Shown one piece after another: positions 1,041 to 29,693 of a stretch of DNA of 64,000 nucleotides (within the stretch, counting starts at the first letter, position 1; each line of letters starts with the position of its first letter). A program made the translations under genes and the position numbers. The notes beneath the pieces are model-generated. The model made no database searches. It was not told the DNA's origin and was given only the letters and a program-made list of their open reading frames with translations. Source of the DNA: Acidobacteriota bacterium (lineage in GTDB: Bacteria; Acidobacteriota; UBA6911); NCBI GenBank assembly GCA_963664705.1, contig OY761556.1, positions 5,728,001 through 5,792,000 of the forward strand, written 5' to 3'.

Positions 1041-2120
1041 ATGGCTGATACGAATGAATTGGCAGCCCGTCCGTTGGAGGGAAAAGCGACGGCGGATGTG
1101 CAACGGCGCTTCGAGCCGGACCTGCTGAGCTATCGTAGCGCTGCAGCTTTGGCTGCAGCGCTGGCGAACAAAGTGAAAGACAAGGTTGTCGGGCACGAGG
1201 TCGTCATCGCAGATATGGCGGTGCTCGTCGACTTTGCTAATTTGGAGGCTCTGTATGTTGAGCTGGACGAAATGGCAAATGACTTCACCGCACTTGCCGA
1301 TCTCGCCGATGCGGCAGTTCAGCGGCGTAGAGCGGCGACGCCGCCCACAAAAGGAGCGGTCGTTAGCCTGGAGACATTCGCGCCTTTAGTAGCGGTAACG
1401 GAGGCGACGCCCGCCTTAGCCGCGTTGTCGACCGGCGTTAGCACGGCGCTCGGACTAGTAAGCCTGTTCCGGCAAGATGTCGAATTCGGCGGACGCCAGA
1501 CGACCGTCGATCCCTTGACGTTTGAACTGGCGCTCGCGGGCGCCTTGATCGACAAGGGCGCGAAGCGTGTTGTTGCCGTGGATTTCGAAGTCGCGGCAGC
1601 GAGCAATTCTGCACAATCATTACGCGGCCGGCTGCATGCTGTACACACGGCGCGTGCCAAGGCGTGGACGGCCGTTGCACCGCTTGTCACCACCGTGGCG
1701 AAGTTCGAAGTGGAACTCGACCAAGCAAGCCGCGCAAAGAAGCAGGATGAGGTGAACCGGCTGACCGGAGATTTGGCGCAACTGCGACGCGAAGTGCAGC
1801 CGCTCGCCGATCCCATGTCGCGGCTGGATTCACGCTTGAGCGACCTGGAAAAGAAAGCTATGTCCGTAGACGAGAAAACGGGAATTTCATTGTTCGCACG
1901 CTGGATGAGAGCTGAAGCGATTCGGGAGCGAAACCCTATTTATTTGCATGCGACAGTGGCGTCTTCCGGCGGGGGATTTCAAGTAGCCCGCAGTCTCTGG
2001 CGCACCAAAGCAAAGGTGAAGTCCAGCGGAGGCGTCGTGGTGCGCTGGGCATTGCTTGCAACCAGCGGGGAGATTGCCAATGCCGGCATGCTGGATGCGA
2101 CTGAAGAGTTAGAGATGTAA
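1041..2120 (+). CDS. Hypothetical Ala-rich helical/coiled-coil protein
   Basis: 359-aa ORF with GAGGA RBS, 9 bp downstream of the previous gene (operon). Confidence 0.75.
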   Translation: MADTNELAARPLEGKATADVQRRFEPDLLSYRSAAALAAALANKVKDKVVGHEVVIADMAVLVDFANLEALYVELDEMANDFTALADLADAAVQRRRAATPPTKGAVVSLETFAPLVAVTEATPALAALSTGVSTALGLVSLFRQDVEFGGRQTTVDPLTFELALAGALIDKGAKRVVAVDFEVAAASNSAQSLRGRLHAVHTARAKAWTAVAPLVTTVAKFEVELDQASRAKKQDEVNRLTGDLAQLRREVQPLADPMSRLDSRLSDLEKKAMSVDEKTGISLFARWMRAEAIRERNPIYLHATVASSGGGFQVARSLWRTKAKVKSSGGVVVRWALLATSGEIANAGMLDATEELEM

Positions 2121-2426
2121 GCGGAGTCTTGACGAGATCGGCTGGCCGGGTGCGATATCATGCACGTAAGCGCTTGTAAATCATTGAGAGAGAAGGACAG
2201 GTCATTATCAAGGTGAGTTCATAACCCCAGGTTCAAATTTGAAATTTGTCCACAAAAGCGGCGCTAAAATGATGTCCATTACACCGGGTATTCAAGCCTA
2301 GTTTTTGCCAAAAGTCGGCAGTTTTGAAATTCAACAAAAGGATAGATTGTAAAATATCGTCAGTAGTCAGCGTATATGAATTCGATCCTGATGACATACC
2401 TGATTGCGGATGATTGCAGGAAACGG

Positions 2427-3317
2427 TCAGGCGCGCATCATGGCGTCTTGGATCTGCTTCGCATGCCAGGTTTCTCCAATACCGAATAATAAGGATGCCT
2501 CCGGGAAAGCAGTTTTGGCAAATGCAATTAAATCCTTGATGGAATCATTGGGTCCAGCACCACGGAGTATGTTGAAGACGCCCAATATGCGTTGTGTACT
2601 CGCAACCTGCAACACTCGATCATGGCTGAAGAAGGCTGTGTATTTTCCAAAAGGGATAAAGTGACCAATAATAGGTAACACGCCTAATGCGGGTAGTACC
2701 TCCTCGGTGAAATGAGAAATGCAGATTACTGGTAAAATTGCTGATGCATATTCAAACATCTCATTTAGAATCTCAAAGCGGCCGAGTAGGACAAGCAAAT
2801 CGGCGTAATCTGCTCCAATCATGAATGCATCAGCTAACGGCGCCATTTCAAACAAGCGTTTTGTAAAGCGCTCTTTGTTCAAGCATATAGAAGAAATTTC
2901 TCGTTGGGTTAATGAACATTGTAATGAGTGGCTTCCTGTCCAGCAATGCCGTCTTTCCGGCGCAAGCGGACTCTGGCAAATACGATCAACCATGTGCATC
3001 TTGCGTTCCATAATTGCTGAATACAAACGGTCCCTACTGTGTATAGCTTCGCGCCCTTCGATTTCAACCCCACAACCCCAACTCGGATTTGCCAGCACAA
3101 CGAGGCTTTTGCCGTAAGATGCACGCAATGTGCGAATTGCAGTGACCAATGGAGGATGGAATGAGAAATCGACGGCCTCGAAGCCGGCTTGAATGCTCGC
3201 CTCCAGAATCTTTAGGATTTCCGAATCATCATACATTCTGGAAGGCTCCACAGTCGGCAAAAATGGAACAAATGCATCGGTTCCAATTATGTTACGCGGA
3301 AGGTTAAGGCAGCCCAT
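2427..3317 (-). CDS. Hypothetical protein, probable TIM-barrel (aldo/keto-reductase-like N-terminus)
   Basis: 296 aa; GGAGG RBS; the N-terminus LPRNIIGTDAF...ILEASIQAGFEAVD resembles the start of AKR-like barrels; 10 bp after the HD gene. Confidence 0.6.
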   Translation of the reverse strand: MGCLNLPRNIIGTDAFVPFLPTVEPSRMYDDSEILKILEASIQAGFEAVDFSFHPPLVTAIRTLRASYGKSLVVLANPSWGCGVEIEGREAIHSRDRLYSAIMERKMHMVDRICQSPLAPERRHCWTGSHSLQCSLTQREISSICLNKERFTKRLFEMAPLADAFMIGADYADLLVLLGRFEILNEMFEYASAILPVICISHFTEEVLPALGVLPIIGHFIPFGKYTAFFSHDRVLQVASTQRILGVFNILRGAGPNDSIKDLIAFAKTAFPEASLLFGIGETWHAKQIQDAMMRA

Positions 3318-3327
3318 ACGGCCTCCA

Positions 3328-5514
3328 CTACTCTAATGAAACACTCATGCCTTGGATGCCAACAGAAAATTCGAAACGCTTTGGAAATGGAATACCCGAA
3401 AACGATAGTCGCTTCAAATTCTGGGCTTTACCGTGGGAAAATACGTCAAAGTTCCAATCATAAAAACTTTTGTCCGCGCTGTGAATATATTCAAACTTGC
3501 ATCTGATAGATTCATCATCGAGGACATTCCCTTCTACGGGACCAAAAAGCATGTCGCTAATCATTGTCTCGTAACCCTTTGGGCCGAGACATGTTCTGCC
3601 CCATTCCTGCATCTCGTCGCATAATATCAGTAACGCACCAAGTGGATTCTCAGTGAATCGAAGAGGAATCGCTGAACGATTTCCAGATATTGTATCAGTG
3701 GCAGATTCTAGGTTGTGAAGCAAGATTGCGCGGGCGGCTTCAAAGAGAATCTTCTCTTGAGTTACTGCCTTTCCGGTAGGCGGATATAATATTGAGGCTG
3801 TATCGAGGAGGTTGAGAGCACTAAGTGCACCGTGATCGTATAACAACTCAAGCGATGTATGTCCAAATCCTTTGTTGGCCAACTCAGCAGGAAAATAGCG
3901 CTGTAAGAGAACCCATATTTCGTTATTGTTGACAGGATTGTCATTAGGCCCGAGAGGAGGAGTTACAATCTTGCGTAGCCTCAATCCCAAAATTTTTCCG
4001 ATGGCATTCTCAACGGCGTCAAAGATACTAGTGGCTGAAGTCCCGAAATGAGTCGAGATTGCATTTAGCCGTGGCGCATGGTTTAGCGCAAACGATACTG
4101 GATAGCAGTGATCATGTAATAACGCGGTATAGGTCCAAGCAGCGTGTACCGCACCGTTCATATCTGGCCAATGTAAGGTATTAGCTACATGTTTCGAAAG
4201 TGGTACGCCATCTCTCATATTAAGTTGGAGAAGGACTAGACCCGCATAGAGCACATTAACGACATGGATATGATGATCTCTGTAACGCTTCGATGTGAAA
4301 TAGCTAAGTACATCGATATCTCGAGACTCATGGGTTAAATCGGCTGCCTTCGTAAAAACGTCATTTTTTGAAGTGGGGATGTGCTTTTTGGTTTCATTGA
4401 GCGCTGCGTCCTGCAATTCAAAATAGAGATCTCGATATTTGAGAGGTTCAGAGCCCACATCGTCGGGAATAGCCCTCTGCGGCATCTGGTAATGACTCCG
4501 CAGAAACTCCATGCATCTGGCAGAACTGAACTCGATGTACGATCCACGGGATTTATTATTCGCATGGGTTCGAGCAAGGCGAAAGGGTTCAAGGGCTCCA
4601 TGAACTGCCTCTGCAATAGCATATGTAAAAGACGGGTGATCAATGTCATCAGGAGTAAGTTGATGTGATTCTCTTATATCATGGGCACCAATTTTGAGTA
4701 TAGGATAGGAACTCAGTATGATGTCTATGAGTGCTTTACACAATGTGGGACCGCTGTGACGCTGAGACTTTGCCAAAGCCTCTTGAATGTCTTTTGCCGT
4801 TGCCGTAATAAGGATTGCTCCTGCACTGTCGTTAGTCATGTACTCTTGGCCATAAGTGTTGGGCACATTTGAAACAAATTTGTATTTCGGCGGGTGACGA
4901 TTGATAAAAGCCACAAGGGCATTGGATAGCTTGTATCTGTAATCGTGGCGCTCCCCAGATATAATGATATGGTCCTTTCCCTGTGACGTTCCTAGCATCG
5001 CAATTATTGCAGTGTTATGCATGGCCATCTCTTCAAAAATTTTGGCTCTCTTCCCCTCTTTGGCGAGAAAGGGTAATAGGGCTTCAACTATTAAAGCGAC
5101 GCGCTCAGGACCGCAGTCTAGGGCTGCGGATAATTCACTGACTAATGCCTTTGTACCTGATGGTGTTATTTGACCTGATGGAACAACGCGAGCAAGGCGA
5201 TCATAAAGTAATTCAAGTTCTGTGAGAAATGGAAGACAGGCTGTGTCTGTAGCGAGTTCTGCTCCGTCTTTTACCTCAAGCGTTATTCCGAGTTGCGATG
5301 CAAAGAATTGTTCAAAGAATAGTTTATACACCCGTGTATTCTTGGGAGACAATCCGCTTCTAGTCCCGTATTGCTGTCGCTCATTAAAAACAATCGTTAA
5401 AGATCCAGGTTTCCCCAAAAGAAGCTTTTTGATCTGCAGAAGTAGCGCAACATGCCCCAAATGAAGCTCATCGAGATCATTGCCGTTAACTGCCCAGAAA
5501 GAATAAACGTTCAT
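3328..5514 (-). CDS. Fusion of a class Ic aminoacyl-tRNA-synthetase-like (TyrRS/TrpRS) domain and an HD-superfamily phosphohydrolase
   Basis: HIGH-like ELHLGH; IISGERH and PNTYGQEYMTNDSAGAILITATAKDIQEAL align by eye with the GxDQ and KMSKS regions; C-terminal YRDHHIH, LLHD, DHG, LLHN and LCDEMQEWGR are HD motifs; ATG at 5514 chosen over TTG at 5556. Confidence 0.7.
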   Translation of the reverse strand: MNVYSFWAVNGNDLDELHLGHVALLLQIKKLLLGKPGSLTIVFNERQQYGTRSGLSPKNTRVYKLFFEQFFASQLGITLEVKDGAELATDTACLPFLTELELLYDRLARVVPSGQITPSGTKALVSELSAALDCGPERVALIVEALLPFLAKEGKRAKIFEEMAMHNTAIIAMLGTSQGKDHIIISGERHDYRYKLSNALVAFINRHPPKYKFVSNVPNTYGQEYMTNDSAGAILITATAKDIQEALAKSQRHSGPTLCKALIDIILSSYPILKIGAHDIRESHQLTPDDIDHPSFTYAIAEAVHGALEPFRLARTHANNKSRGSYIEFSSARCMEFLRSHYQMPQRAIPDDVGSEPLKYRDLYFELQDAALNETKKHIPTSKNDVFTKAADLTHESRDIDVLSYFTSKRYRDHHIHVVNVLYAGLVLLQLNMRDGVPLSKHVANTLHWPDMNGAVHAAWTYTALLHDHCYPVSFALNHAPRLNAISTHFGTSATSIFDAVENAIGKILGLRLRKIVTPPLGPNDNPVNNNEIWVLLQRYFPAELANKGFGHTSLELLYDHGALSALNLLDTASILYPPTGKAVTQEKILFEAARAILLHNLESATDTISGNRSAIPLRFTENPLGALLILCDEMQEWGRTCLGPKGYETMISDMLFGPVEGNVLDDESIRCKFEYIHSADKSFYDWNFDVFSHGKAQNLKRLSFSGIPFPKRFEFSVGIQGMSVSLE

Positions 5515-6042
5515 ATAGATTCGCTCCGTGTTCGTTCTAGCGCCAAACCTTCCCAAAGTCCGTTAAGTGTTTCTGTGTGATTTGGCGCAGGAGAGACTGC
5601 GTTGAGGGTTAGATGTCGGCACACCCCCTGCGCACTCAATCACGATGGTAATACGTGTAGAAAATACGATTTTCGGATGCCCGAGTATGCTCTGTTGTCA
5701 TTCCGGTAGCAAGTCCTAAATGGATAAAAAATAGATACCAATGGTTGCATTGAGAATGCATTAGGTCGCGCTGCGGCTTGCTGTTACGGGCGATAAGAAA
5801 TATCTAACCAGAATCGATTGGCACACGGTCTGGGTACGTTCGGCAAGACGAGACTCTCAGATATCCAGTAGTAAATTGAGATATAGGATGCAAATTTGAG
5901 AATTTTGAGCTCTAATGGATGATACAAAGTTCGCATTGTTTGCACGAACTAATTGCGATGAAATTTTGCTCAGTACAATATAAACCGAACCGCTCGACTA
6001 ACAAGATGCAGCTTTTGTTTACCCACTTCAAGGAGCTATAAA

Positions 6043-8469
6043 GTGTATAAAAGCACTTGGTTGGCGTGCCAACTTATGGACATTGTCTGCGGCTTGTCTA
6101 GGACTCAGGATCCGCACCCAGGTTACCACACAATCGCTCGGGAAATGGGGCGGTATTGGAAGTTACATCAGGTTTTCCTATTGGTCCGTCGTTTTTACTC
6201 GGGGTGGCGAAGGAATGAACTGAGTTTCTGGGTATACGCAGGCGGTGAAATACTTGAACGCTATCACGGGAATAGGCCCAGTGCGATTGTGGAAATCGCA
6301 TTGACCCAAAGTCATCTTCTAAGTCGACTTGATAGTGTGCAATTAGTGGGAATGAGGCTCGACGAGGACCCCTTTCTCAAGCAGCAATTGTATATGGCAT
6401 GTGCGCCAGCGGCCGATCTCACAGACGAAGTGCAGGGAATACGAATCGACGAACAAGGATATACCATTGGATTCCTGCTTGTCCCGAAAGGTGCTTCCAA
6501 CGTTCTGTTGACAGAGGATACAGAGATCCTTAAACGTTCAGTTAGGCTGGCTTTTGAAAGGACATCCAGCGCTTATGCGGAAAATGAACAGCTTTGCAAT
6601 TCCCTTTCGGCAATTGCTGGGCAACTCTTCAGAAACTGCAGCGATACATCTTCACTCGAATTTGGCAGCAGCCGCGAGCCAAGAAGTGATGACGTCCTCC
6701 AGGAATTCCTTGATTACACGCGTACTACGATGAAAGCGCAAAGGTGTGCGCTGTTTCTGGTGGATGAGCGAGAGAATAGTCTTACTTTGGAACGCATTTC
6801 CGAGCAAACTGATAGCGAAAACAAGCTCCATTACGAGGAGATACCGCATATACCTTCATATGATCTTGTGAATTACAGTTCAGAAAAGCGAGGACAAGGA
6901 GTGACTCCTTGGGTTCTCTACCGTAAGGAGCCATTCAATGCGCGTAGCTATGAAGAGTTGATAAGCAATTCCGAAGGCCATCATAAAGGAAATTGGGATG
7001 ATCTCATTTATGGCGGCAAAGACAAGGCGAGAAACGACTTCAAGTGTGTCTATATGACACCACTCCTTGCTGGCGCTAAGGCTATTGGCGTCCTTAAGTG
7101 CGAGAATCGCACGCTTGAGGCGCCCTATCCATTTTTCGATCAGACAGATGAGCGCCAAATCAATAGTTTGGCGGGCGTTCTTGTGAACCTTGTTGTATCT
7201 CAACGCATTGAACGCAGGCGCTACGACAGAGCCTTACCAGCCATATCTGAAATCCTTCTGAGGGATTTCGGTCAATCCCAATTGTTCAAAAGCCTTTTGA
7301 GTGAATGCCGCAGCCGGCTACACGCCGATCTCTGCTCGCTGTTCGTCACAAGCGGTGGCGATCTTGTTTTGCGCGCCATTGTGGGGTTGGACAAAGACAA
7401 AGAGGCACGCCTCCTTGACTTCCGGTATGAAAACTACCGGACTTCCGATGGACTTACGTGCTTGGTCCTCAGACAACACAAGTCATTTAATATGCGATCT
7501 TATAAAGATCTAGCTGATCGTGCAGAACGCAAAGGCCCGGGCAAGTGGGACGACATCGTCTATGATGGAAATGCAGCCGTGATGTTCAAATCGCTTTATT
7601 CTATTCCACTCCGGATTGGCGAGGAGGATGTTGGTGTATTGAAAGTTGAGAACAAGAACGTTGCGCCCTTTTACTTCACAGAGAGCGATGAGCGCCTATT
7701 TGATTTGATCGGACGGCTCATTGCGATCGGCGTCAAATATGATAACGAGGCTTATCTAGGACTTATGCTGCGGGCGGCCGAAATGGGATTCCTTGCCTCC
7801 GGAATTGCCCACGAATTCAACACATATTTGCAAAGTATTCAAGGTATCTCAGACGTGATTGGGTTGGATGCCGAGGGGAATATCCGTCGGCAAGTCAACA
7901 AATTATCGCGGCAGATCAAATTAGCGGCGAAGACGATTGATAATTTTCGTATGATTCGAGATCGCAAGCAAGAGGTGGAAACTTTTCCTATCGACCAACG
8001 TGTAGACGAGATTGTCAAGATCGTTGATGAACGTTTTCGAAACAACCAGATTGAGCTGGAATATCAGAAAAATCACTTCGAAGTCACGATGAATTCAAGC
8101 GAATTTCAGACCATACTCATCAACCTATTGCGCAATGCGCACGACGCTATTGTCGAAACGAAGCGTCCGGGCAAAGTATATTTGGCTGTCAGGGAGAGTG
8201 GAGAGGGCCGATTCATAATCGAAGTGGCTGATACCGGTACAGGATTTGACCGTGACAAGATGCAATATCTCGGTGCTCCTTATTATACAACCAAGAGTGC
8301 TGCCGGTGGGACGGGAATGGGGTTATTCTGGATCTACCGAATCGTGGAGCGAAATAGGGGTGAGATTGATCCTGTTGCGAATAATCAATTCGGAGGGGCG
8401 ACGATTCGAGTCACACTTCCCAAACACTGCGGGGCAAACGACCACGCAAATCCTGGAGGTAAGCGATGA
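6043..8469 (+). CDS. Soluble tandem-GAF sensor histidine kinase
   Basis: AAGGAG RBS; two homologous GAF domains; H-box IAHEFN, N-box NLLRNAHDA, G1 DTGTG, G2 GTGMGL; no transmembrane segment seen. Confidence 0.9.
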   Translation: MYKSTWLACQLMDIVCGLSRTQDPHPGYHTIAREMGRYWKLHQVFLLVRRFYSGWRRNELSFWVYAGGEILERYHGNRPSAIVEIALTQSHLLSRLDSVQLVGMRLDEDPFLKQQLYMACAPAADLTDEVQGIRIDEQGYTIGFLLVPKGASNVLLTEDTEILKRSVRLAFERTSSAYAENEQLCNSLSAIAGQLFRNCSDTSSLEFGSSREPRSDDVLQEFLDYTRTTMKAQRCALFLVDERENSLTLERISEQTDSENKLHYEEIPHIPSYDLVNYSSEKRGQGVTPWVLYRKEPFNARSYEELISNSEGHHKGNWDDLIYGGKDKARNDFKCVYMTPLLAGAKAIGVLKCENRTLEAPYPFFDQTDERQINSLAGVLVNLVVSQRIERRRYDRALPAISEILLRDFGQSQLFKSLLSECRSRLHADLCSLFVTSGGDLVLRAIVGLDKDKEARLLDFRYENYRTSDGLTCLVLRQHKSFNMRSYKDLADRAERKGPGKWDDIVYDGNAAVMFKSLYSIPLRIGEEDVGVLKVENKNVAPFYFTESDERLFDLIGRLIAIGVKYDNEAYLGLMLRAAEMGFLASGIAHEFNTYLQSIQGISDVIGLDAEGNIRRQVNKLSRQIKLAAKTIDNFRMIRDRKQEVETFPIDQRVDEIVKIVDERFRNNQIELEYQKNHFEVTMNSSEFQTILINLLRNAHDAIVETKRPGKVYLAVRESGEGRFIIEVADTGTGFDRDKMQYLGAPYYTTKSAAGGTGMGLFWIYRIVERNRGEIDPVANNQFGGATIRVTLPKHCGANDHANPGGKR

Positions 8470-10070
8470 GTGAATCGGCTCCCACAATCCTAATTGTCGA
8501 TGATGATGAGGTTATTCGAGATAGCTTTTGCGAGTATTTTTCCAGGCTTGGTTGGAGTGCCAATGGAGCAGCGGACGGGGAAGCCGCTCTTCAGTTATTG
8601 CGTACAAGAAATTGGATATGCGATTGCATTGTGCTCGACAAAAGGATGCCCAAAATGGACGGGCTGACCTTTCTGGAAACACTGCGACGAGAAGAAGCTC
8701 GAAATCCTCGTATACCAGTTATCGTTCTGAGTGCATATGTTGAAAAGGACGCCGACAAAGCAAGCTTCGAGGAGGGTGGCGTTGCTTTTGTGTTTGGGAA
8801 GCCGCAGCCTTGGGATCTTATGGAGGCCGCCGCTAATGCTATTACTTCCTCAAGAACCAAGGCTCAACAAGCGCAAGAGGTCGAGCATGCCATGTCAGTG
8901 CATGCGATCGACAAGGTAGTGCGCCAACATGAGGATCTTATTGAGGAATACTTTGAGACGAAGAGCAGTGAATGCAGCATGGCTTTCCACCAGATAGAAG
9001 AGCCGCTTCTTGTTGTGGCCAGACGATGGAATTCTTGGTATCCGAGTTTCTTTAACGTGGCCGGTGGAGCATACGCTATTGTATTTCCAAAATATAATGC
9101 AATGGATCCCAGAAATCGTGTTGTCCTTATCGACCCAGGATTTCGGTCGCTGGAGATCCTTTCCGGGATCGGGCTGTCGGTTCAGGATATGGAAACATGC
9201 GTAGTCACTCACAACCATCCTGATCACCTGGGAGGGGTATTTGAATACATCGCCTGCCGCAACCAAGCCGGTCTCCCAACGGCGTTTTCATGTAATCCTT
9301 CAACGAGACGGATACTTGGCGAATTGGCGAACAGGAACCTTATAGCAAGGGAATTGCCTGACCAAGGGAAGAAGGACATATTGTTGGATTCTTACCTCGA
9401 TTTCATGGGGAGATATCGGTCCCTTGAAGTTGGAGCTTTTGCAACGGATCACCATGAGATCGGTTGGGATGATGATGCCCGAGGTTTGATTCTCACAGCA
9501 AATTCAGGGGATGGTGACGGTGCACTCGGGTGGGATCATTCTTGTCGGGCGGTAATCTTGGGTGACACTGCATTCGTCCCCGTCAGTCCATCGAGAAACA
9601 TCCCTGCATTTTTCTACGGAGACGATAATACCAAAATTGCTGTCCTTCACATTGGTAGTTCCCAGCTAAAGCGGCGAGTTGGAGGACACCTGTATCTCAC
9701 GGGATTATTGCGGCTACTCGTTGCTCTTGCACAGGGCCTTGACGATCGAGATCACGATAGGAAAAATAAGCTTGTTGTACTCATTTCAGAATGGGGCTTG
9801 GAACATGCCACGGCCCAGCAAATAAAAGCGATCTGCCCGGCTGTCAGCGGCTTCGATGATTCAAGCGCTATTGTTGCGACGATATCAGTGCTGCGGAACG
9901 CTCTAAAAGACATGGGCTACGATCGTTTAACGATATTACCCGCCGATATCGGGCTCATGGTCGGCATGGAAAGCGGACAAATATATTTGAAGGACGGAAA
10001 TCGCTTCCAGACAAAGTCGCCAGATAAGGTAAGTTTCGTGCCCGGTCTCGATGGTTTGGAATATTCCTGA
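8466..10070 (+). CDS. Response regulator receiver domain fused to a metallo-beta-lactamase-fold hydrolase
   Basis: REC: ILIVDDD, VLDKRMPKMDG, LSA, GKP; MBL: LIDPG, THNHPDH (HxHxDH), DHHE, GDT; ATGA overlap with the kinase gene. Confidence 0.88.
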   Translation: MSESAPTILIVDDDEVIRDSFCEYFSRLGWSANGAADGEAALQLLRTRNWICDCIVLDKRMPKMDGLTFLETLRREEARNPRIPVIVLSAYVEKDADKASFEEGGVAFVFGKPQPWDLMEAAANAITSSRTKAQQAQEVEHAMSVHAIDKVVRQHEDLIEEYFETKSSECSMAFHQIEEPLLVVARRWNSWYPSFFNVAGGAYAIVFPKYNAMDPRNRVVLIDPGFRSLEILSGIGLSVQDMETCVVTHNHPDHLGGVFEYIACRNQAGLPTAFSCNPSTRRILGELANRNLIARELPDQGKKDILLDSYLDFMGRYRSLEVGAFATDHHEIGWDDDARGLILTANSGDGDGALGWDHSCRAVILGDTAFVPVSPSRNIPAFFYGDDNTKIAVLHIGSSQLKRRVGGHLYLTGLLRLLVALAQGLDDRDHDRKNKLVVLISEWGLEHATAQQIKAICPAVSGFDDSSAIVATISVLRNALKDMGYDRLTILPADIGLMVGMESGQIYLKDGNRFQTKSPDKVSFVPGLDGLEYS

Positions 10071-10437
10071 CAGCATGCCTCTCAGTGCATGTAGTTCGAG
10101 ATTATCTGTTTTATTCAGGCTTGGAGAGGTATCCAACTGCAAGTTTTGCGTTATTTTATCACTCAAATTTTGCGATATTAAAGCGGAACGGAGCAAAACT
10201 CAGCAGTGCAGGGCTGTTCGGAAAATAGACTTTTTGAAACATTTCCCTTGTAGCGAAAAAAATTTGCAGTTGTCCCGATCGTGGTTGGGTCCCCCTAAAC
10301 GGGAAGGGGCCCCAAGGGTCAGACCCTACTGGGGGGGGTGCGCCTGGGGTGCGGAAGTTGCAGAATTTTGCCGCTCTGTGCCGGGTTGTGCCGGGTAGAA
10401 GTCCTTTAAATTCAATGATGCCAATACTTGATTGAAA

Positions 10438-10483
10438 ACTGGCAGTCAGGAGGTCACGAGTTCGATCCTCGTCAGCTCCACCA
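10438..10483 (+). repeat. att site 1: 3' half of tRNA-Ala(GGC)
   Basis: ACTGGCAGTCAGGAGGTCACGAGTTCGATCCTCGTCAGCTCCACCA contains the GGC anticodon loop, T-arm GTTCGA and an acceptor strand with U70 and CCA; the 5' half is absent. Confidence 0.92.
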
Positions 10484-10570
10484 TCAACTCCTTGATTCCA
10501 CTACAACTTAGAGCCTTCGAGAAAATCCCGTTCATTAGCCAGTCCGTGCTTGGGGGTTATTTGGGGGTAA

Positions 10571-10870
10571 TCAGGCTGTTTTGTCAGCCTTTTCCGGTTC
10601 TGCCGCCAGCGCTTTCCCAAGCGCCTCGACAGCCGTTTGTTTGTGATCCGGTGATAGGTGCGTGTATCTGAGAGTCATTGAGATGCTCTTGTGTCGGAGG
10701 ATCTCTTTGACAGTGGCAAGATTCACTCCTGCCATTACGAGATAAGACGCGGCCGTGTGCCTCAGCGTGTGGAAGGTAACCCTCTCCAGTTTGGCGTTCG
10801 CGTGAACGTGGTGAACGCCCCGATTTTTACCGAAATATTTATCATTCAGGTAGACGATTCCGCTGCGTTT
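10571..10870 (-). pseudogene. C-terminal remnant of a tyrosine integrase
   Basis: FHTLRHTAAS...ILRHKSISMTLRYTH box II motifs; the N-terminal part is missing; 5' boundary approximate. Confidence 0.85.
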
Positions 10871-10930
10871 GCGTACTTGGAGTATGGAAGGACAATAAGA
10901 ATTGGTGCGGCAATTCGCGGGAGTTGACGA

Positions 10931-13900
10931 ATGCATCACACAGTCAGGAGATTCGGTGCGTTATTTTTTATTTTGATTGCGTCGCGCTTTGGCCATTCAT
11001 GGACCGGTAATTGGATCAGTGTGGGACTTACCAGTGACTCAGTGCGGGTTGTTGCCGTAGATCCGATGGATGCGCAGACTGTCTATGTGGGCACCACCCG
11101 CGGTCTTTTCAAGACCACCGACGGCGGAACCAACTGGAGCTCCAAAAGCGTCGGTTCAGGAGATGCGATCACGGGTTCACTGGCAATTGATCCGGTTGTC
11201 CCGCTGACGATCTATGCTGGCACCGACAAAGGACTGTTCAAGAGTATGGATGGCGGCGACAGCTGGCGTGCCCTTGCCGTCGGATCGCTGCCCAACTCCA
11301 CAGCGGAATGCTTGGCGATTGATCCGACCGACCATCGCACTGTATATGCCTATGCGTGGGGGGTGTACAAGAGTTCGGATGCTGGCGAAACCTGGATTTC
11401 ACTCAACCTTTATCCCTCGGTGAGAGTACTGGCAATCAACCCGGCGGATCCGAAGATTTTGTATGCAGGCACCTACTCAGGCGTTTACAAGAGCATTGAT
11501 GGAGGAGGGCATTGGAGTTTCCTATCTTCGACCGCGGGATACGATGCGATGGCCTTGTCCATCGACCCGGCCTCGCCCCAAACCATCTATGCCGCCTTTG
11601 GATCACGGGGAGTGTACAAGAGCACAGACGCGGGCAGTACATGGAATGGCGTTCCCATAATTTCTTACCCCGGCAGCAATTTGACGGCCTATTCGCTGGC
11701 GAGAGACCTGACATCTCCTTCAACCGTTTATGCCGGCACGGACTGGGGAGTAGTAAACGCGGATACGAAGAGTTTTCTAGGGAATCCCAACATGCTTCCG
11801 CGATACGTGGCTTCTCTGGCAATCGGTCCGGTAGGGACTGAAAGCATGTTTGTCGGTACCTCCGACACAGGATTATTTAGATTTACCACTGCATCGCTCC
11901 CATCATCGGAGGTCACGATCGCGACGAAACCGGAGGGTATCCGTTTTACCTTGGACGGGGTCGGGTTTATGAGCAGCCAGGTTCTTTCCTCTGTTATTGG
12001 AACAGGGCATTTTATTGGAACCGACTCGCCGCAAACCCTGAACGGGAGGCGATATCAGTTCTCGGGATGGAGTGACGGGGGCGCTATAACGCACACATTG
12101 ATCACGGGAGCGAGCGCAAAAACCTACACCGCAAACTTTACAGCCGAATATTGGCTGACGCTTCTCGCCGGGTCTTTCGGTTTCATAACCAAGAGCCCGA
12201 CGCCCGCAGATGGGTCCTCCTATTATGCTCCCGGAACTCAGGTGCTGTTGACTGCGGTTCCTATGGCCGGCTATGTCTTTGATGGATGGAGCGGTGATCT
12301 TACGGGATCGACCAATCCACAGTGGGTTACGATGTCGGCGCCGAAAACGATCAGCGCAAAATTTTCCCCGCTTAAAGCTGAAATTAAGATAAATACAAAT
12401 CCTCCAGGGCTGAGTTTTACGGTTGACGGTATAACGTATACCACCGCCCAGACTTTCTCCTGGGAGGTGGGCAGCACTCATTTACTGCGGACAACATCTC
12501 TGCAGGGAACGGGCGGGACGCGCTACGTATTTGGCGATTGGAGTGATGGGAAAAGTCTTGATCACGCGTTAATCGTTCCCTCGGTTTCGACGGCCTACAC
12601 AGCAAATTTTGGGACACAGTATCTACTTATGATGGAAGTCTTGCCAGCCGCAGCCGGGATCGTGAGCATAAGCCCTGCCTCTGCCGATGGGTATTACGAT
12701 GCACTGGCGCTGGTGCGTATGACTGCGACAGCGAACAGCGGCTACCTTTTTGCGGGGTGGAGGGGCGACCTTATCCAGAGTGCGAATCCGCTGGCGCTGA
12801 CGGTGTCTTCGCCTTTGAGTGTGAAGGCGAATTTTGCAGTGCTGAATCCGTCCGGGAGGCTGACAGTTGCCGCTGGGGGATCAGGTATTTCAGCCACTCC
12901 CGGGACGAGTTCGACGACGAGTAGCGGATATGCGCTTGTTTCGGTGGATTCAGGGAGTGTACCGTATGGGACGGCTGTCTTCCGGATGCAGCAAAATGGA
13001 ATCACCGTCAGCGAAGCGGGTGTTCCTGCATCACCTCCTACTACCGCAGCCCGTATTTTCGTGGATTACCGATCCGGTGTGAATGCCGTTCCATCGAATC
13101 CCAGTGTGGGTTCGGTGAATATCAACACTGGCATAGCCGTTATCAACTATGGTCCTGCGTCCGCAAGCATCCTGTACACACTACGGGATTCAAATGGGAT
13201 CGTTGTCGCGGAAGGGCATGGCCCGCTAGGATCCAGGCATAGATTCACGTGTTTCATTGATCAGCTGAGGGATGTGGCGGCTCCGGACTTTAGTCTTCCA
13301 TCCAATTTTGAGGTAGGTTCTCTGGAAATACGATCGGATCAACAGATATCGGTGCTTGCCGTACGGGAGACAGTGAACCAGAGAAACGAATCCTTGATCA
13401 CCACTACGCCTATCGCTGACCTGAACCGCATCGTGCCGGCCGGCCCGATATATTTTCCGCAATTTGCGGATGGTGAGGGATACACAACTTCAATAATTCT
13501 GTTGAATACTTCGAATCAGGTTGAGGCAGGAATACTGCAGATCAGGGACAGAGATGGGAATCCGGTAATAGTGAAACAGGCGGGAGGTGCCGCCGGCTCT
13601 GCATTCAGCTATACGATACCGTCTGGAGGGCTGTACCGATTTCAAAGCGATGGATCCTCGGAGACCATGAAAACCGGATGGATAAGTCTCGCCCCAACCG
13701 AAGGGACACAGTCTCCAATCGGATCGGGAGTGTTCAGCTATAATCCACAGGAGGTAATGGAATCGGAATCAGGGATTCCATCGGCCAACGCAACGACGCA
13801 CGCAAGGGTGTATGTGGATCTTTCAGGACATCACAATACCGGGATCGCGATTGCCAACATTTCAAGTGTTGGTTCCACTGTCGCCATAAAGGCTTATTTG

Positions 13901-14275
13901 GATGACGGGGTCACGGAGGCTGGGACGAGCCGGGAGCCTTTGTCATTATCAGCCCATGGATACAGAGCGGCTTTTGCAGACCAACTAGTCGACGGTTTGC
14001 CGGAAGGGTTCAGGGGAGTATTGGATATCAGTTCCATGCAGCCATTTGCGGCATTGACTGTGCGGTCGCTTACAAATGAGAGGGATGCATTATTGATGAC
14101 GACCTTTCCAGTCGCAGATCTGAGTCAGGCAGCCCCCTCACCTGTGGTGTTTCCGCAGATTGCCGATGGAGGCGGGTATTCGACACAGTTCATTTTTATA
14201 GGAACGATCAGTGCGGCGACAGCCACGCTGACTTACTATGACGGAACCGGATCACAAATCCAATTCGGCAACTGA
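10931..14275 (+). CDS. Large secreted protein: VPS10/BNR beta-propeller, InlB-B-like repeats and repeated C-terminal beta domains
   Basis: Signal peptide; repeated KSxDGGxxW Asp-box motifs; YxFxGWSGD repeats; duplicated YFPQFADGxGYxT segments. Confidence 0.8.
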   Translation: MHHTVRRFGALFFILIASRFGHSWTGNWISVGLTSDSVRVVAVDPMDAQTVYVGTTRGLFKTTDGGTNWSSKSVGSGDAITGSLAIDPVVPLTIYAGTDKGLFKSMDGGDSWRALAVGSLPNSTAECLAIDPTDHRTVYAYAWGVYKSSDAGETWISLNLYPSVRVLAINPADPKILYAGTYSGVYKSIDGGGHWSFLSSTAGYDAMALSIDPASPQTIYAAFGSRGVYKSTDAGSTWNGVPIISYPGSNLTAYSLARDLTSPSTVYAGTDWGVVNADTKSFLGNPNMLPRYVASLAIGPVGTESMFVGTSDTGLFRFTTASLPSSEVTIATKPEGIRFTLDGVGFMSSQVLSSVIGTGHFIGTDSPQTLNGRRYQFSGWSDGGAITHTLITGASAKTYTANFTAEYWLTLLAGSFGFITKSPTPADGSSYYAPGTQVLLTAVPMAGYVFDGWSGDLTGSTNPQWVTMSAPKTISAKFSPLKAEIKINTNPPGLSFTVDGITYTTAQTFSWEVGSTHLLRTTSLQGTGGTRYVFGDWSDGKSLDHALIVPSVSTAYTANFGTQYLLMMEVLPAAAGIVSISPASADGYYDALALVRMTATANSGYLFAGWRGDLIQSANPLALTVSSPLSVKANFAVLNPSGRLTVAAGGSGISATPGTSSTTSSGYALVSVDSGSVPYGTAVFRMQQNGITVSEAGVPASPPTTAARIFVDYRSGVNAVPSNPSVGSVNINTGIAVINYGPASASILYTLRDSNGIVVAEGHGPLGSRHRFTCFIDQLRDVAAPDFSLPSNFEVGSLEIRSDQQISVLAVRETVNQRNESLITTTPIADLNRIVPAGPIYFPQFADGEGYTTSIILLNTSNQVEAGILQIRDRDGNPVIVKQAGGAAGSAFSYTIPSGGLYRFQSDGSSETMKTGWISLAPTEGTQSPIGSGVFSYNPQEVMESESGIPSANATTHARVYVDLSGHHNTGIAIANISSVGSTVAIKAYLDDGVTEAGTSREPLSLSAHGYRAAFADQLVDGLPEGFRGVLDISSMQPFAALTVRSLTNERDALLMTTFPVADLSQAAPSPVVFPQIADGGGYSTQFIFIGTISAATATLTYYDGTGSQIQFGN

Positions 14276-14475: not shown

Positions 14476-15519
14476 TTACCTCTTTTTGCGCCACTCGGCT
14501 CCGGGCCCACGTCCAAGACATTCAACAACCCCCTTTTCCTTGAGGTTGCGAAGAGTTGTGCGAACCATGTCCCGGCTCACTCCGGGACAGGCGTCTTCAA
14601 GTTGGCTTAGCGAGAATGATCCGCGGAACTTGCCAATGGCCGCTTCGATCATCTGTGTTTTGGCTCCTCGCGGACTCCTGATTTGTTCGAGACGATTCTC
14701 AAATTCCTTGTATGCCGATTTGATGATGAAGAGAAGGTAATTGATGTATGGCCAGGGATCATGCTTCCCCTCATGCCAGCCATTAGAGCTTTGTTCGAGG
14801 GTTTCGTAGTATCGTTCCTTGTTTTCTTCTATCAGCCGCTCCATGCTGATGTAACGAGCCACATCGTATCCAAGGTGGTAGCACTGAAGGAGAAGTAAAA
14901 GACGAGAAACGCGGCCGTTTCCGTCACGGAATGGATGGATACAGAGAAAATCCAAATTGAATGCGGCTAGGGAGATCAGAGGATGGATGGATTTCTCCTC
15001 CAGGAACCGGGCGTAAAGTGAGATCAACTCCTTCATAAAGGGCATTGTCTGTTGTGGAGAAACGGTCTTGAAGCGGACTCTAACCCGGCCATCCGGGTAT
15101 TTCTCGATAATATCCCCTTCTTTTTGTTTTAGTTTCCCTGCATCACCGGTTCCACTCCTACATAATCGATGCAGATCAAGGATGCTTTTCATTGAAACGG
15201 GCAAATCGGCGGCACTTTCGTGAATCAGCCTGAGAGCGTCCCGATAGCCACGGACTTCCTCCTCATTGCGATCTTGAAGAGGTGGCTTCCCGAAAATGAT
15301 TGTGCCGACTCGCCGACGGTCAATTTCTATTCCCTCGATACGGTTTGAGGAGACTGCACTTTCAATCAACGCATGTTCCCGCAATGCTTGCAGTTTTTGT
15401 GGAGACTGCCGTACATACAAATCCTGTTTGCCGCGTGACTCTCCAAGATCGGCCAGGTACCATGCCGTCGCCGCTGGGATTGAAGCCAGTCCTGCATCGA
15501 AAATTTTCAGGGTGTTCAT
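14476..15519 (-). CDS. fic: Fic family protein with C-terminal winged helix
   Basis: Complete Fic motif HPFRDGNGRVSR; inhibitory-helix-like SNRIEG near the N-terminus. Confidence 0.92.
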   Translation of the reverse strand: MNTLKIFDAGLASIPAATAWYLADLGESRGKQDLYVRQSPQKLQALREHALIESAVSSNRIEGIEIDRRRVGTIIFGKPPLQDRNEEEVRGYRDALRLIHESAADLPVSMKSILDLHRLCRSGTGDAGKLKQKEGDIIEKYPDGRVRVRFKTVSPQQTMPFMKELISLYARFLEEKSIHPLISLAAFNLDFLCIHPFRDGNGRVSRLLLLLQCYHLGYDVARYISMERLIEENKERYYETLEQSSNGWHEGKHDPWPYINYLLFIIKSAYKEFENRLEQIRSPRGAKTQMIEAAIGKFRGSFSLSQLEDACPGVSRDMVRTTLRNLKEKGVVECLGRGPGAEWRKKR

Positions 15520-15870: not shown

Positions 15871-15916
15871 ACTGGCAGTCAGGAGGTCACGAGTTCGATC
15901 CTCGTCAGCTCCACCA
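15871..15916 (+). repeat. att site 2: 3' half of tRNA-Ala(GGC)
   Basis: Identical to 10438-10483. Confidence 0.92.
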
Positions 15917-26555: not shown

Positions 26556-27415
26556 GGTATGGCTTCATTCAAGCGCATCGGCATGAATTTACGATATCGC
26601 TGATGTGTCGAGTGCTTGAAGTATCCAGAGCCGGATTCTACCTTTGGCTCAAGCGGCCCGAGAGCCCGAGGAATGCAGAGAACAGCCGATTATTACTAGC
26701 AATTCGGGCAATTCATCGGGCAAGCCGGGGCGCGTACGGAAGTCCCAGAATTCATGCGCAATTGCGGGCAGTGTCCAAATTACACAGCAGGAATCGTATT
26801 GCCAGGCTAATGCGCGAGAATAGGATCCAAGGCAAACAGAAACGGAAATTTAGAGTTACGACAGATTCAAAACATAATTTCCCGATATCTCCAAATGTGT
26901 TGAACCGGGAATTTGCGGTGAAAATGCCAAACAAAGCTTGGGTGGCGGATATCACATACATCCCAACAAAAGAAGGCTGGTTGTATCTGGCCGCGGTGAT
27001 GGATCTGTACTCAAGAAGGATCGTTGGCTGGGCCATGGGTAGCCGGATTTGTCGACATCTGGTTGAAAGAGCTCTGTGCATGGCTTTTTTCAAACGTAAC
27101 CCATCACCAGGTCTGCTCCATCATTCAGATCGAGGCAGCCAATACGCCAGCGGGGATTACCAGAAGTTATTGAAATCTAGCGGAGTTCTTTGCAGCATGA
27201 GCCGCAAAGGCAATTGCTGGGATAATGCTGTTATGGAAAGTTTCTTTGCCACGCTGAAAACAGAACTTATTTATCATCGAAATTACGAAACGAGAAAGGA
27301 GGCGCAATCAGATATTTTTGAGTATATCGAAGTGTTTTATAATCGACAGCGGCTTCACTCGGCTCTGGGCTATCGGAGCCCTGAAGCCTATGAGGAATCT
27401 GCCAAAGCCGCTTAA
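26552..27415 (+). CDS. IS3 transposase OrfB (DDE)
   Basis: [26 protein letters not shown]. Confidence 0.92.
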
Positions 27416-29087
27416 CTTCGTGTCAACAGTTTCGGGTCAACCCCAACTCTACGTCCATGTTTGCAAGAGGGATACGCTTAACGAAGCCTACCGGATGGCG
27501 AAAGAAAACGACGGGGCACCGGGGATAGACGGGGTTACGTTCGAAGCCATCGAGGAAAGCGGAGTGGCGAGGTACCTGGAGCAGATACGGGATGAACTGG
27601 TCTCAAACACATATCAGCCCCTGCGGGCACGGAAGAAGGAAATTCCTAAGGACGGGGGCAAGAAAGTCCGCGTTCTGTCAATTCCGGCTATTCGTGATCG
27701 TGTGGTTCAGGGAGCGCTAAAGCTCATCCTGGAGCCAATCTTCGAAGCTGATTTTCAATCGGGGTCGTATGGATATCGTCCGAAACGGACAGCGCATCAA
27801 GCGGTGAACCGAGTGGCACAAGCGATTGTGGAGGGCAAGACGCAAATCATTGACATTGACCTGCGGGCCTACTTCGATAACGTTCAGCACTATCTGCTGT
27901 TAGAGAAGGTGGCTCGGCGGGTACAGGATGATGAGGTCATGCATTTGCTCAAGATGATGCTGCAGGCGACTGGGGGAAAGGGCGTTCCGCAAGGCGGGGT
28001 GATATCGCCGTTGCTCAGTAACCTCTACCTCACAGAGGTAGATCGGATGCTGGGAAAGGCGATCGCCACCACGCGGCGTGGACAATACACCAACGTCCAA
28101 TATGCACGATTCGCGGACGATCTGGTGATCTTGATTGACGCTCATCCGCGGCATGACTGGCTGGTCAAGGCGGTAGAAAAGCGATTGCGGGAGGAGTTGG
28201 CGAAACTACAAGTGGAGATCAATGAGGACAAAAGCAGGATGGTCGATCTGGCGAAGGGGGAGAGTTTTTCATTCCTGGGTTTTGAATTTCGTCGCATTCG
28301 GAGCCGTAATGGGGTGTGGCGACCGTACTATGCGCCGAAGCTGAAGAAGCGGACCGCGCTGTTTGAGAAACTTCGGGAGATCTTCCGACGCAAGGTCAGC
28401 CAGCCCGTAGGAAAAGTGATTGAGATGATCAATCCGATTCTGCGAGGCTGGGTGAATTACTTTCGGATTGGCGATTCAAGTCGGTGTTTCTCAATGGTCA
28501 AGCAATGGGTAAATAAGAAGGTTCGGCGGCATCTGATGCGTGCCCGGGGACGAAAGGGAATGGGCTGGAAACGGTGGAGTAGGGAATGGCTATATACCAC
28601 CTTGGGACTGTTTGATGGTTACCGAGTGAGGCGGCCGTGGTACCCGAAAGCTGCTCCAACCCAACCCGTCACATAAACCTTGCGGCGAAGCAAACAGGAA
28701 AGCCTACTGCGGGAAATCCGCACGGTGGGTTTGATGCGGCGGGGATTGGAACCGGATCTACGGTTCGGTTAGTGAGGCACTCCCAGAGGAAACGGGGAGC
28801 AACGGATAGACTGAACCTACGGGGTACCGCGCCAGTCCTCGACCCTACCGCAAAGAAATCACGCTAAAGTGGTCTCAGCAATTTAGTTGGTTTGCGCATG
28901 AAAAGTTGACCAGTTTCTCGGCCTTTCCTCATTCAGTTCTCTACTTGCTTGTGAATTCAGACGAGATACCATAGTCCCCATTCTTCAGTGAGCATCTAGA
29001 TTACGCTCCCGGGGAAATTGGTGGAAATAAACTGGCACATTAGGTTAATGTCATAGGAATAGTGATGTCCTTGAAAGCAAACAATCG

Positions 29088-29693
29088 GTGCTAGCTAAGA
29101 GGGGATCAATTTCGAAGCCTTCGTCGCAGGAATTGACTTGTCTTTTATTGGCTTGGCGCGACGGAGAACAGGCAGCGCTTGAAAAACTGGCTCCAGTGGT
29201 ACACCAGGAACTCCGGCGACTCGCGCATGCCTACATGCGAGGAGAGCGCAAAGATCATACGCTGCAAATCACGGCCTTGATCAACGAGGCATATCTGTGG
29301 CTACTGGACCATAGAAGAATGGGATGGCAGAACCGGGCGCATTTTTTGCAATCTAAGCCCAGATGATGCGGCACATCCTCGTTGACTATGCTCGCTCGCG
29401 GCGATTCCTGAAGCGCGGCGGGCGGAGCCGAAAAGATCTCGCTGGATGAAAATTGCATCGCCACAGGCGAGCGTAATCCCGATCTGCTTGAACTGGACGA
29501 TGCGCTCAAAGCTCTTGCTGCCGTGGATGAACGGAAAGAGCAGGTTATGGAACTGGGCTACTTTGGCGGGCTGAGCGTGGAAGAGACGGCCGAGGTGCTC
29601 GGAGTATCGCCGGAAACTGTGATGCGCGGCTGGAAGCTGGCCAAAACCTGGCTAGCGCGACAAATGAGAAGCACTCCCAGGACAAACCCATAA
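29088..29693 (+). pseudogene. ECF sigma factor (kinase-associated type), frameshifted
   Basis: LLLAWRDGEQAALEKL...TALINEAY...NRAHF; then MMRHILVDYAR and LDDALKAL...GLSVEETAEVLGVS in other frames; lesions near 29345 and 29420. Confidence 0.8.

Follow-up and report, generated by a model that had tools for sequence, protein, structure and literature searches.

Apyc1 is an anti-Pycsar phosphodiesterase with a metallo-beta-lactamase (MBL) fold that cleaves cyclic mononucleotides. In RelA/SpoT and GlnD a nucleotidyl-transfer-type domain and an HD hydrolase occur together; the synthetase folds of these proteins are unrelated to the aminoacyl-tRNA synthetase (aaRS)-like fold. In Detocs, a kinase (DtcA), a lone receiver (DtcB) and a receiver (REC)-effector protein (DtcC) are all three required by the authors' detection rule, and swapping of the effector is known (bioRxiv 10.1101/2023.01.24.525353). 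The subject of this study was a group of four genes that partly resemble each of these systems, located in a 64,000-nucleotide stretch of the genome of an Acidobacteriota bacterium (contig OY761556.1, positions 5,728,001 to 5,792,000; this whole stretch is referred to as the window). The genes encode a TIM-barrel protein (P0001), a protein with an aaRS-like domain and an HD domain (P0002), a histidine kinase (P0003) and a regulator with a receiver and an MBL-fold domain (P0004). Positions are those of the window unless a locus label or a genome coordinate stands with them.

An initial annotation of the window, made from the DNA sequence alone, had proposed that the four genes form one self-contained circuit. 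Our results favor, with a little less than even confidence, a different reading, in which the four genes fall into two independent modules of two genes each, which share an island without forming one obligate four-gene system; both would be of nucleotide type and likely act in defense. The evidence that carries this reading is the conservation of the P0002-P0001 pair at loci where the kinase and regulator genes were not seen, together with the very different sizes of the families concerned.

P0002, an aaRS-like domain joined to an HD domain

P0002 had no sequence match in Pfam, NCBIfam, PHROGs or the PDB, and only noise in PADLOC (E 0.026). An AlphaFold model of the protein, made from a 28-sequence alignment, had a pLDDT of 86.8. 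Structure prediction and fold search confirmed the class I aaRS fold and the HD fold that had been proposed for this protein, as well as the TIM barrel proposed for P0001.

As in class Ic, the aaRS-like part combines a catalytic domain of the Rossmann fold, including CP1, with a helical domain at its C-terminal end, and the closest known proteins are TyrRS/TrpRS enzymes of the archaeal/eukaryal type (PF00579; e.g., PDB 2cya and 2yy5). Profile-profile comparison of P0002 with the three PF00579 enzymes of its own genome gave a probability of 85.5% and an E value of 5.8e-6. A direct PF00579 search of that genome found those three genes and not P0002; P0002 did not match this model at all, and 3 of its 28 relatives did so, the best with an E value of 0.0057, below the cut-off. 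The sole matches in BFVD were TyrRS/TrpRS of giant viruses.

In the alignment with the synthetases, HLGH of P0002 (aa 18-21) falls on the HIGH motif, which is HVGH in the TyrRS of this genome, GERH falls on GSDQ, and YMTNDS falls on the KMSKS-type loop KFGKTAS. The GxDQ and KMSKS motifs are thus both lacking. HxGH is kept in 15 of the 28 long family members and is HxAD, HxGQ or HxGK in the other 13; its first His and an (R/K)H motif are near-invariant across all 28. As judged from these motifs, the aaRS-like part is a divergent class Ic aaRS paralogue with altered adenylate-chemistry motifs and a conserved pocket, and it is predicted not to work as a synthetase. The initial annotation had placed synthesis of a signal within the module. 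That claim was not supported: no synthesizing enzyme was identified, and the aaRS-like domain is without GxDQ and KMSKS.

The HD domain contains the conserved motifs RDHxxH, HDH, DHG, AIxxH and DExQEWxR. Metal ligands of the HD type are invariant in the 28 sequences (H414/H417, H467-D468, H561, H600 and D633), the extra His being of the binuclear-site type. The Pfam HD model (PF01966) did not match P0002; among the relatives it matched four weakly, three of them below the cut-off (P0128, P0146 and P0155) and P0113 with 24.2 bits. Pfam HD-CE (PF24391) had been suggested for the HD-like family with a score of 0.90, yet no family member matched it. The closest described proteins are HD-superfamily phosphohydrolases linked to sensors, namely class I cyclic-nucleotide phosphodiesterases (PDEs) such as the GAF-GAF-PDE proteins PDE2/5/10, Dictyostelium RegA (REC-PDE), YhaM and the C-domain of PPX/GppA; unlike these, P0002 has no Pfam HD match, carries an extra C-terminal alpha/beta subdomain with DExQEWxR, and has an aaRS-like domain as its putative sensor. 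P0002 resembles RelA/SpoT and GlnD in joining a nucleotidyl-transfer-type domain with an HD hydrolase.

Neither P0002 nor the MBL part of P0004 had a tblastn match in a plasmid collection. In the main text of the open-access papers searched, neither a TyrRS-like-HD fusion nor a bacterial REC-MBL phosphodiesterase regulator was described.

P0001, the TIM-barrel partner of P0002

No Pfam family matched P0001, including that of the aldo-keto reductases (PF00248), and no NCBIfam, PADLOC or PHROG model did. The fold search placed aldo-keto reductases nearest to it, and its predicted structure has the (beta/alpha)8 barrel of that type. Asp-Tyr-Lys-His is the tetrad of aldo-keto reductases. In P0001 and its homologues an invariant Asn77 stands where the Lys is expected, a position placed by eye in a four-sequence alignment and not by structural superposition.

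Scans of genomes and metagenomes yielded 16 loci related to the region. In three of the four that bear on the pair (L011, L012 and L013), the next gene downstream of the one for the P0002 homologue encodes a P0001 homologue (38-43% identity). The fourth, L002, has a P0002 homologue with 39% identity and no P0001 homologue in the 10 kb upstream and 2 kb downstream of it; in the rest of that genome no P0001 homologue was found either, the matches being confined to the radical SAM portion of the alignment used as query. In L011, a TIM barrel of the P0001 type and a MoaA-like radical SAM domain form one continuous reading frame (L011:3003-5066; CNFNCVFC, CxxxCxxC). The best match of this radical SAM domain was MoaA (E 4e-26, below the cut-off), and viperin-family models were weaker. 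An HNH-AP2 endonuclease gene follows the fusion gene in L011.

The initial annotation had not recognized the architecture as a named system, and this agrees with the searches, as PADLOC, NCBIfam, Pfam and PHROGs returned nothing for P0001 or P0002. The TyrRS-like-HD protein and the TIM-barrel protein constitute an undescribed module, for which none of these four collections has a model.

P0003 and P0004, a predicted phosphorelay

Pfam confirmed the tandem GAF domains of the kinase and the receiver and metallo-hydrolase domains of the regulator, and all of the residues singled out in the four-gene proposal (HLGH and the HD dyad in P0002, the kinase His590 and HxHxDH) are present. P0003 has GAF domains at aa 216-381 and 413-563, HisKA at approximately aa 582-637 with His590, and HATPase at aa 686-794. 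Strings of the NKFDE type had been noted in both GAF domains, and N(K/R)...F...DE is indeed there in each (ENR...FF...DE in GAF-A and ENK...F.F...DE in GAF-B). Sequence matches between these domains and the PDE10A and PDE2A GAF domains in the PDB were insignificant (E 0.26-1).

P0004 has a receiver at aa 8-120, with Asp58, and an MBL-fold domain with HNHPDH at aa 249. In a 30-sequence alignment D58, K112, H249, H251, D253, H254, H329, D367 and H447 are invariant, so that the ligands of a metallo-beta-lactamase-type hydrolase are present, and PF00753 (Lactamase_B) matched with 33.4 bits against a cut-off of 22.7. An H-box in HisKA with HATPase, a receiver with the Asp and the Lys, and adjacent overlapping genes are the marks of a two-component pair. 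The claim that the output is not a DNA-binding one also held: Pfam detected no DNA-binding domain in any of the four proteins. P0003 and P0004 are thus predicted to be a two-component system with an enzymatic output. The family of this system is much larger: the MBL part of P0004 matched at least 95 other clusters, most of them REC-MBL proteins of 500-580 aa and up to 63% identical to it.

The pair resembles Detocs in having a histidine kinase and a regulator with an enzyme in place of a DNA-binding domain, encoded in a defense island. It differs in having a GAF-GAF instead of a TPR sensor and an MBL instead of a PNP effector. No open reading frame (ORF) for a lone receiver of the DtcB kind was found in positions 2000-10600, and no Dtc model was among the PADLOC matches at E≤0.1, the matches of P0003 and P0004 there being generic ones at the level of HATPase and REC. 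Because the lone receiver, the TPR sensor and a PADLOC Dtc match are all missing, we do not regard P0003/P0004 as a member of Detocs. The likeness to Apyc1 (PF23023) is in the MBL part: the nearest solved sequence is 7u2r (E 1.3e-4 over about 70 aa), the HxHxDH motif is intact, and most members of the REC-MBL family carry a precomputed PF23023 match. P0004 itself differs from Apyc1 in reaching 17.9 bits with PF23023 against a cut-off of 50, with about 70 residues aligned, in being host-encoded, and in being fused to a receiver.

Co-occurrence of the two gene pairs

A co-occurrence check, set beforehand, found no kinase or REC-MBL homologue in the related loci: at E≤1e-3, none of the 16 contained a homologue of P0003 or P0004, save one stray REC match in L003. 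Informative upstream sequence was present in 2 of the 16 loci, L002 and L011; in L011 the 808 bp upstream hold only small ORFs on the same strand. The self-contained four-gene circuit thus failed the check as far as these loci allow it to be made. Family sizes are also very unequal. A search of 5.8 billion clusters gave 3 close relatives of P0002, and one of 1.84 billion representatives gave 4 proteins at E≤1e-30, the query being one of them, as compared with the 95 other REC-MBL clusters. We favor two separate modules because the P0002-P0001 pair is kept in three of four loci without the kinase/REC-MBL pair being seen there, and because of this inequality.

The HD-like family and its fusion partners

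When the HD-like domain was used alone, 245 relatives were found at E≤1e-3 (about 245 clusters at 50% identity). Of the 150 of these that were listed, 129 were scanned with Pfam, those shorter than 380 aa and three others being omitted because of size. Among the 129, an N-terminal REC domain was fused in eight (P0024, P0025, P0029, P0041, P0042, P0043, P0060 and P0075) and a C-terminal RyR domain in nine (P0087, P0099, P0110, P0111, P0119, P0121, P0125, P0131 and P0138); single proteins had three to four GAF domains (P0058), a MobA-like NTP transferase (P0074) or a methyltransferase (P0059). A TyrRS-like N-terminus was present in another 25 of the 150 listed relatives, which were chosen by a length of at least 650 aa and a W...H motif and which align throughout. 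This survey indicates that the HD-like domain is the constant part and the input domain the variable part.

RyR domains were recently reported to bind or cleave cADPR immune signals (PMC13232231). Proteins of about 580 aa consisting of the HD-like domain and a C-terminal RyR domain are encoded in L003, L004, L006 and L007, and in two of these four loci (L004 and L007) their genes adjoin those for TIR-WD40 or TIR-LRR proteins. These TIR neighbors suggest a Thoeris-like signal link. In L005, L008, L009 and L010, from metagenome-assembled genomes of gut Firmicutes, a conserved operon of three genes encodes a radical SAM-SPASM enzyme, an HD-like protein of 530-567 aa and a DUF2284 metal-binding protein. 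A DeoRC-like gene lies directly upstream of the HD-like gene in L015 and L016, and in L016 a phosphoribosyltransferase (PRTase) gene also follows it. Viral contigs contained one distant HD-like relative (L022) and nothing useful for the REC-MBL family.

The tRNA-Ala array and the defense island

The four genes had been described as two divergent, tightly coupled pairs around a shared intergenic region of roughly 500 bp, more AT-rich than the first 2 kb of the window and ending about 370 bp before a tRNA-Ala attachment (att) repeat, and hence as island cargo. The analysis agreed in every one of these respects. The four ORFs form two pairs, with a gap of 10 bp between the P0002 stop and the P0001 start and an overlap of 4 bp (ATGA) between P0003 and P0004. 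The spacer between the pairs is 528 bp, or 486 bp with the TTG start of P0002. Overall GC is 0.470 for positions 2427-10070, as compared with 0.572 for positions 1-2120 and 0.532 for the genome. At third codon positions it is 0.41-0.50 in the four genes and 0.64-0.66 in two upstream genes, and it is slightly unequal between the two pairs (0.41-0.46 versus 0.48-0.50), which speaks for two units.

The att repeat matches the 3'-terminal 44 nt of the tRNA-Ala(GGC) gene of this genome without a mismatch and begins 370 bp past the P0004 stop. The genome has five copies of this 44-mer, all in one orientation and including the copy within the tRNA-Ala(GGC) gene itself, and they bound tandem segments of 89.0, 13.5, 51.6 and 5.4 kb. 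The resulting array of about 160 kb (genome G000:C1:5584226-5743916, which reaches position 15916 of the window) is the product of successive integrations at one tRNA gene. ARAGORN detected no complete tRNA anywhere in the window, as expected if the repeat is an att fragment. An Rfam scan of positions 2000-11000 gave a weak, sub-threshold tmRNA-like match on this fragment, which is explained by its tRNA-Ala identity and shape.

The 51.6-kb segment has a GC of 0.478 and is dense in defense genes, and the four genes make up its final 8 kb. According to Pfam and PADLOC, the rest of the segment encodes a tyrosine integrase, a SocA/Panacea-like protein, a BrxHI-like DEAD helicase, endonuclease V, an Mrr-like nuclease, a complete type I restriction-modification system with an embedded PDC-S02 gene, a GmrSD-like type IV enzyme and an AbiLi/AriA-like ATPase. 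A helicase-nuclease of 1723 aa with DUF4011, AAA_11, AAA_12 and MTES_1575 domains (PADLOC Hhe / PDC-S37) is also encoded in this segment, at genome G000:C1:5713889-5719060 (L019:13889-19060, − strand), which is 8 kb before the window begins. The 41 proteins scanned yielded no match to a cyclase, a CD-NTase or a TIR protein.

P0002 was found in none of 40 relatives, 24 of which belong to the same genus. The MBL part of P0004 was found in none of 400 other genomes of the phylum; that search was made with the MBL part alone, the search with whole P0004 being weak, since it scored only three candidates in each genome and these were dominated by REC. The features seen here are those of a tRNA-integrated defense island: repeated tRNA 3' ends in direct orientation, an integrase gene, a GC content unlike that of the genome, defense genes as cargo, and no counterpart in relatives. 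The four genes are cargo foreign to the lineage, seated in this horizontally acquired island.

Proposed mechanism and alternative explanations

From the island context it is likely that both modules serve phage defense or its regulation. In the first module, the aaRS-like domain would be a ligand-binding and possibly adenylylating sensor or feeder for an anionic ligand of nucleotide type; this is predicted because the motifs for amino acid activation are lost (GxDQ to GxRH, KMSKS degenerate) while HLGH is kept. The HD domain would be the catalytic output, cleaving a phosphoester in a nucleotide or a nucleotide-derived signal, and the TIM barrel of P0001 may act on the same metabolite. In the second module, the GAF domains of P0003 would bind a small ligand, probably a cyclic nucleotide, with phosphotransfer to Asp58 of P0004, and phosphorylated P0004 would be an activated Apyc1-like phosphodiesterase.

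If this is true, an HD enzyme that cleaves nucleotides has acquired a class I aaRS fold as its sensor or feeder, within a toolkit that bacteria exchange on defense islands. The HD-like domain, an unmodelled family with REC, GAF, RyR and aaRS-like inputs and sometimes a place beside TIR genes, would be a candidate for a general output or signal-clearing domain of nucleotide-based immunity. The kinase/REC-MBL pair would be a bacterial counterpart of the cyclic-nucleotide phosphodiesterases controlled by a phosphorelay, which bears on how cells reset Pycsar-type signals. Of immediate value is P0002 with P0001, a well-defined, rare and expressible two-gene module.

Several observations weigh against two separate modules and in favor of a single conflict circuit, in which the aaRS-like domain makes a nucleotide signal, the HD domain degrades it, the GAF domains sense it and the kinase relays it to the REC-MBL effector. 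The genes are adjacent and divergent around one intergenic region; all four have a higher AT content than the adjoining DNA, do not belong to the lineage by origin and lie in a defense island; and two-component defense systems with enzyme-bearing regulators exist, Detocs being one (bioRxiv 10.1101/2023.01.24.525353). The circuit also retains some probability because control of the HD-like domain by REC and GAF recurs elsewhere, in eight and one, respectively, of the 129 proteins scanned. However, REC and GAF are promiscuous domains, P0004 has an output domain of its own, and P0002 has no receiver. Loss of HIGH in 13 of 28 relatives, in addition to the missing GxDQ and KMSKS, makes the aaRS-like domain a poor candidate for a conserved synthetase. 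With no co-occurrence in any related locus and such different family sizes, we consider the single circuit unlikely. A more specific version of it is very unlikely, namely an undescribed four-gene defense circuit with P0002 and P0001 as the core of a new kind of immune module, in which a nucleotide signal carrying an adenylyl or aminoacyl group is made or sensed by a repurposed aaRS fold without a known cyclase, and the GAF-kinase/REC-MBL pair has been recruited as the sensing and signal-clearing arm.

Two other explanations concern the P0002-P0001 module alone. It could be a short pathway, in some genomes joined by a radical SAM enzyme, that builds or tailors a nucleoside-like metabolite or cofactor. 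This would account for the MoaA-like fusion in L011, the four loci in which distant HD-like relatives lie in radical SAM-SPASM/DUF2284 operons, the two with DeoRC or PRTase genes, the nearness of the TIM barrel to aldo-keto reductases, and the single fusions to a MobA-like NTP transferase and to a methyltransferase. The P0002 homologue in L002 moreover sits among beta-RFAP-synthase-like, U32, methyltransferase and HemN-like genes; these may be unrelated housekeeping genes, and the U32 matches are weak, TrhP/UbiU-like and probably unrelated neighbors. Set against this pathway are the position of the pair in a defense island without other biosynthetic genes, an orthogroup so rare and patchy as to be typical of conflict genes, and the REC, GAF and RyR fusions and TIR neighbors, which point to signaling or conflict, so that we judge it decidedly unlikely. 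Least probable of all, in our view, is that the module targets tRNA, the TyrRS-like domain (with the helical anticodon-binding region kept in the model) docking a tRNA whose 3' end the HD domain trims or cleaves, with abortive-infection toxicity or repair and surveillance as the outcome. The N-domain of P0002 is neutral (isoelectric point 7.2) and that of many relatives acidic, the fold search gave PDE-type matches as good as YhaM, and fusions of the HD-like domain to small-molecule sensors (GAF, RyR and REC) fit a small-molecule substrate better.

Coordinates and other features of the region

The features of the region are listed in Table 1. The likely true start of P0002 is the ATG at 5514, giving a protein of 728 aa, because GGAG lies 9 nt upstream of it and three close homologues begin there. 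P0003 starts with GTG, and AAGGAG precedes it by 7 nt.

Table 1 Positions of genes, domains and other features in the window
Feature	Position	Strand	Description
P0001	2427..3317	-	296 aa, TIM-barrel protein, conserved partner of the aaRS-like/HD gene
P0002, longest ORF	3328..5556	-	742 aa, from TTG
P0002, residues 1-324	4543..5514	-	TyrRS/TrpRS-fold (class Ic aaRS-like) domain; HLGH present, GxDQ replaced by GERH, KMSKS degenerate (YMTNDS)
P0002, residues 325-728 and stop	3328..4542	-	Enlarged HD-type phosphohydrolase domain with C-terminal alpha/beta subdomain
Divergent intergenic region	5515..6042	.	528 bp, GC 0.439
P0003	6043..8469	+	808 aa, predicted soluble histidine kinase; Pfam and NCBIfam kinase-core matches
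P0004	8466..10070	+	534 aa, response regulator, REC and metallo-beta-lactamase fold; Pfam
att repeat	10440..10483	+	3' terminal 44 nt of tRNA-Ala(GGC)
Tyrosine recombinase remnant	10571..10939	-	C-terminal 122 aa only; Pfam Phage_integrase E 1e-13, profile positions 114-170 of 172; start of next islet

The Rfam scan showed no family, riboswitch or T-box in the divergent intergenic region, and its fold z-score was −0.49. Promoter and terminator scans gave counts of sites at the chance level, including the promoter-like sites in this spacer, and no meaningful repeats flanking the four genes were found. In three sequencing runs compared with the region (X1, X5 and X6), nothing but the identical sequence was seen; X5 gave fragments at low depth over all 12 kb, and X6 gave none.

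Just upstream of the att repeat, at 10280-10400, there is a G-rich stretch of low complexity (GGGG/CCCC runs) within an ORF of 115 aa that has no family match. Beside the integrase remnant starts a gene (10931-14275, + strand) for a protein of 1114 aa with BNR/Sortilin-type propeller repeats and InlB B-repeat (Flg_new_2) domains. The 5.4-kb islet, which the last two att repeats enclose, also contains a gene for a SoFic-like Fic-domain protein (14476-15519, − strand; PADLOC SoFic E 5e-35). Farther on, a reverse transcriptase gene (27318-28676, + strand) matched a generic reverse transcriptase model with E 2e-68, and models of both the DRT and the group-II-intron type scored with it; it adjoins a gene (29693-32458, + strand) for a PD-T4-6-like Ser/Thr kinase of 921 aa. 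These last two genes indicate that defense-type genes run on beyond the att array.

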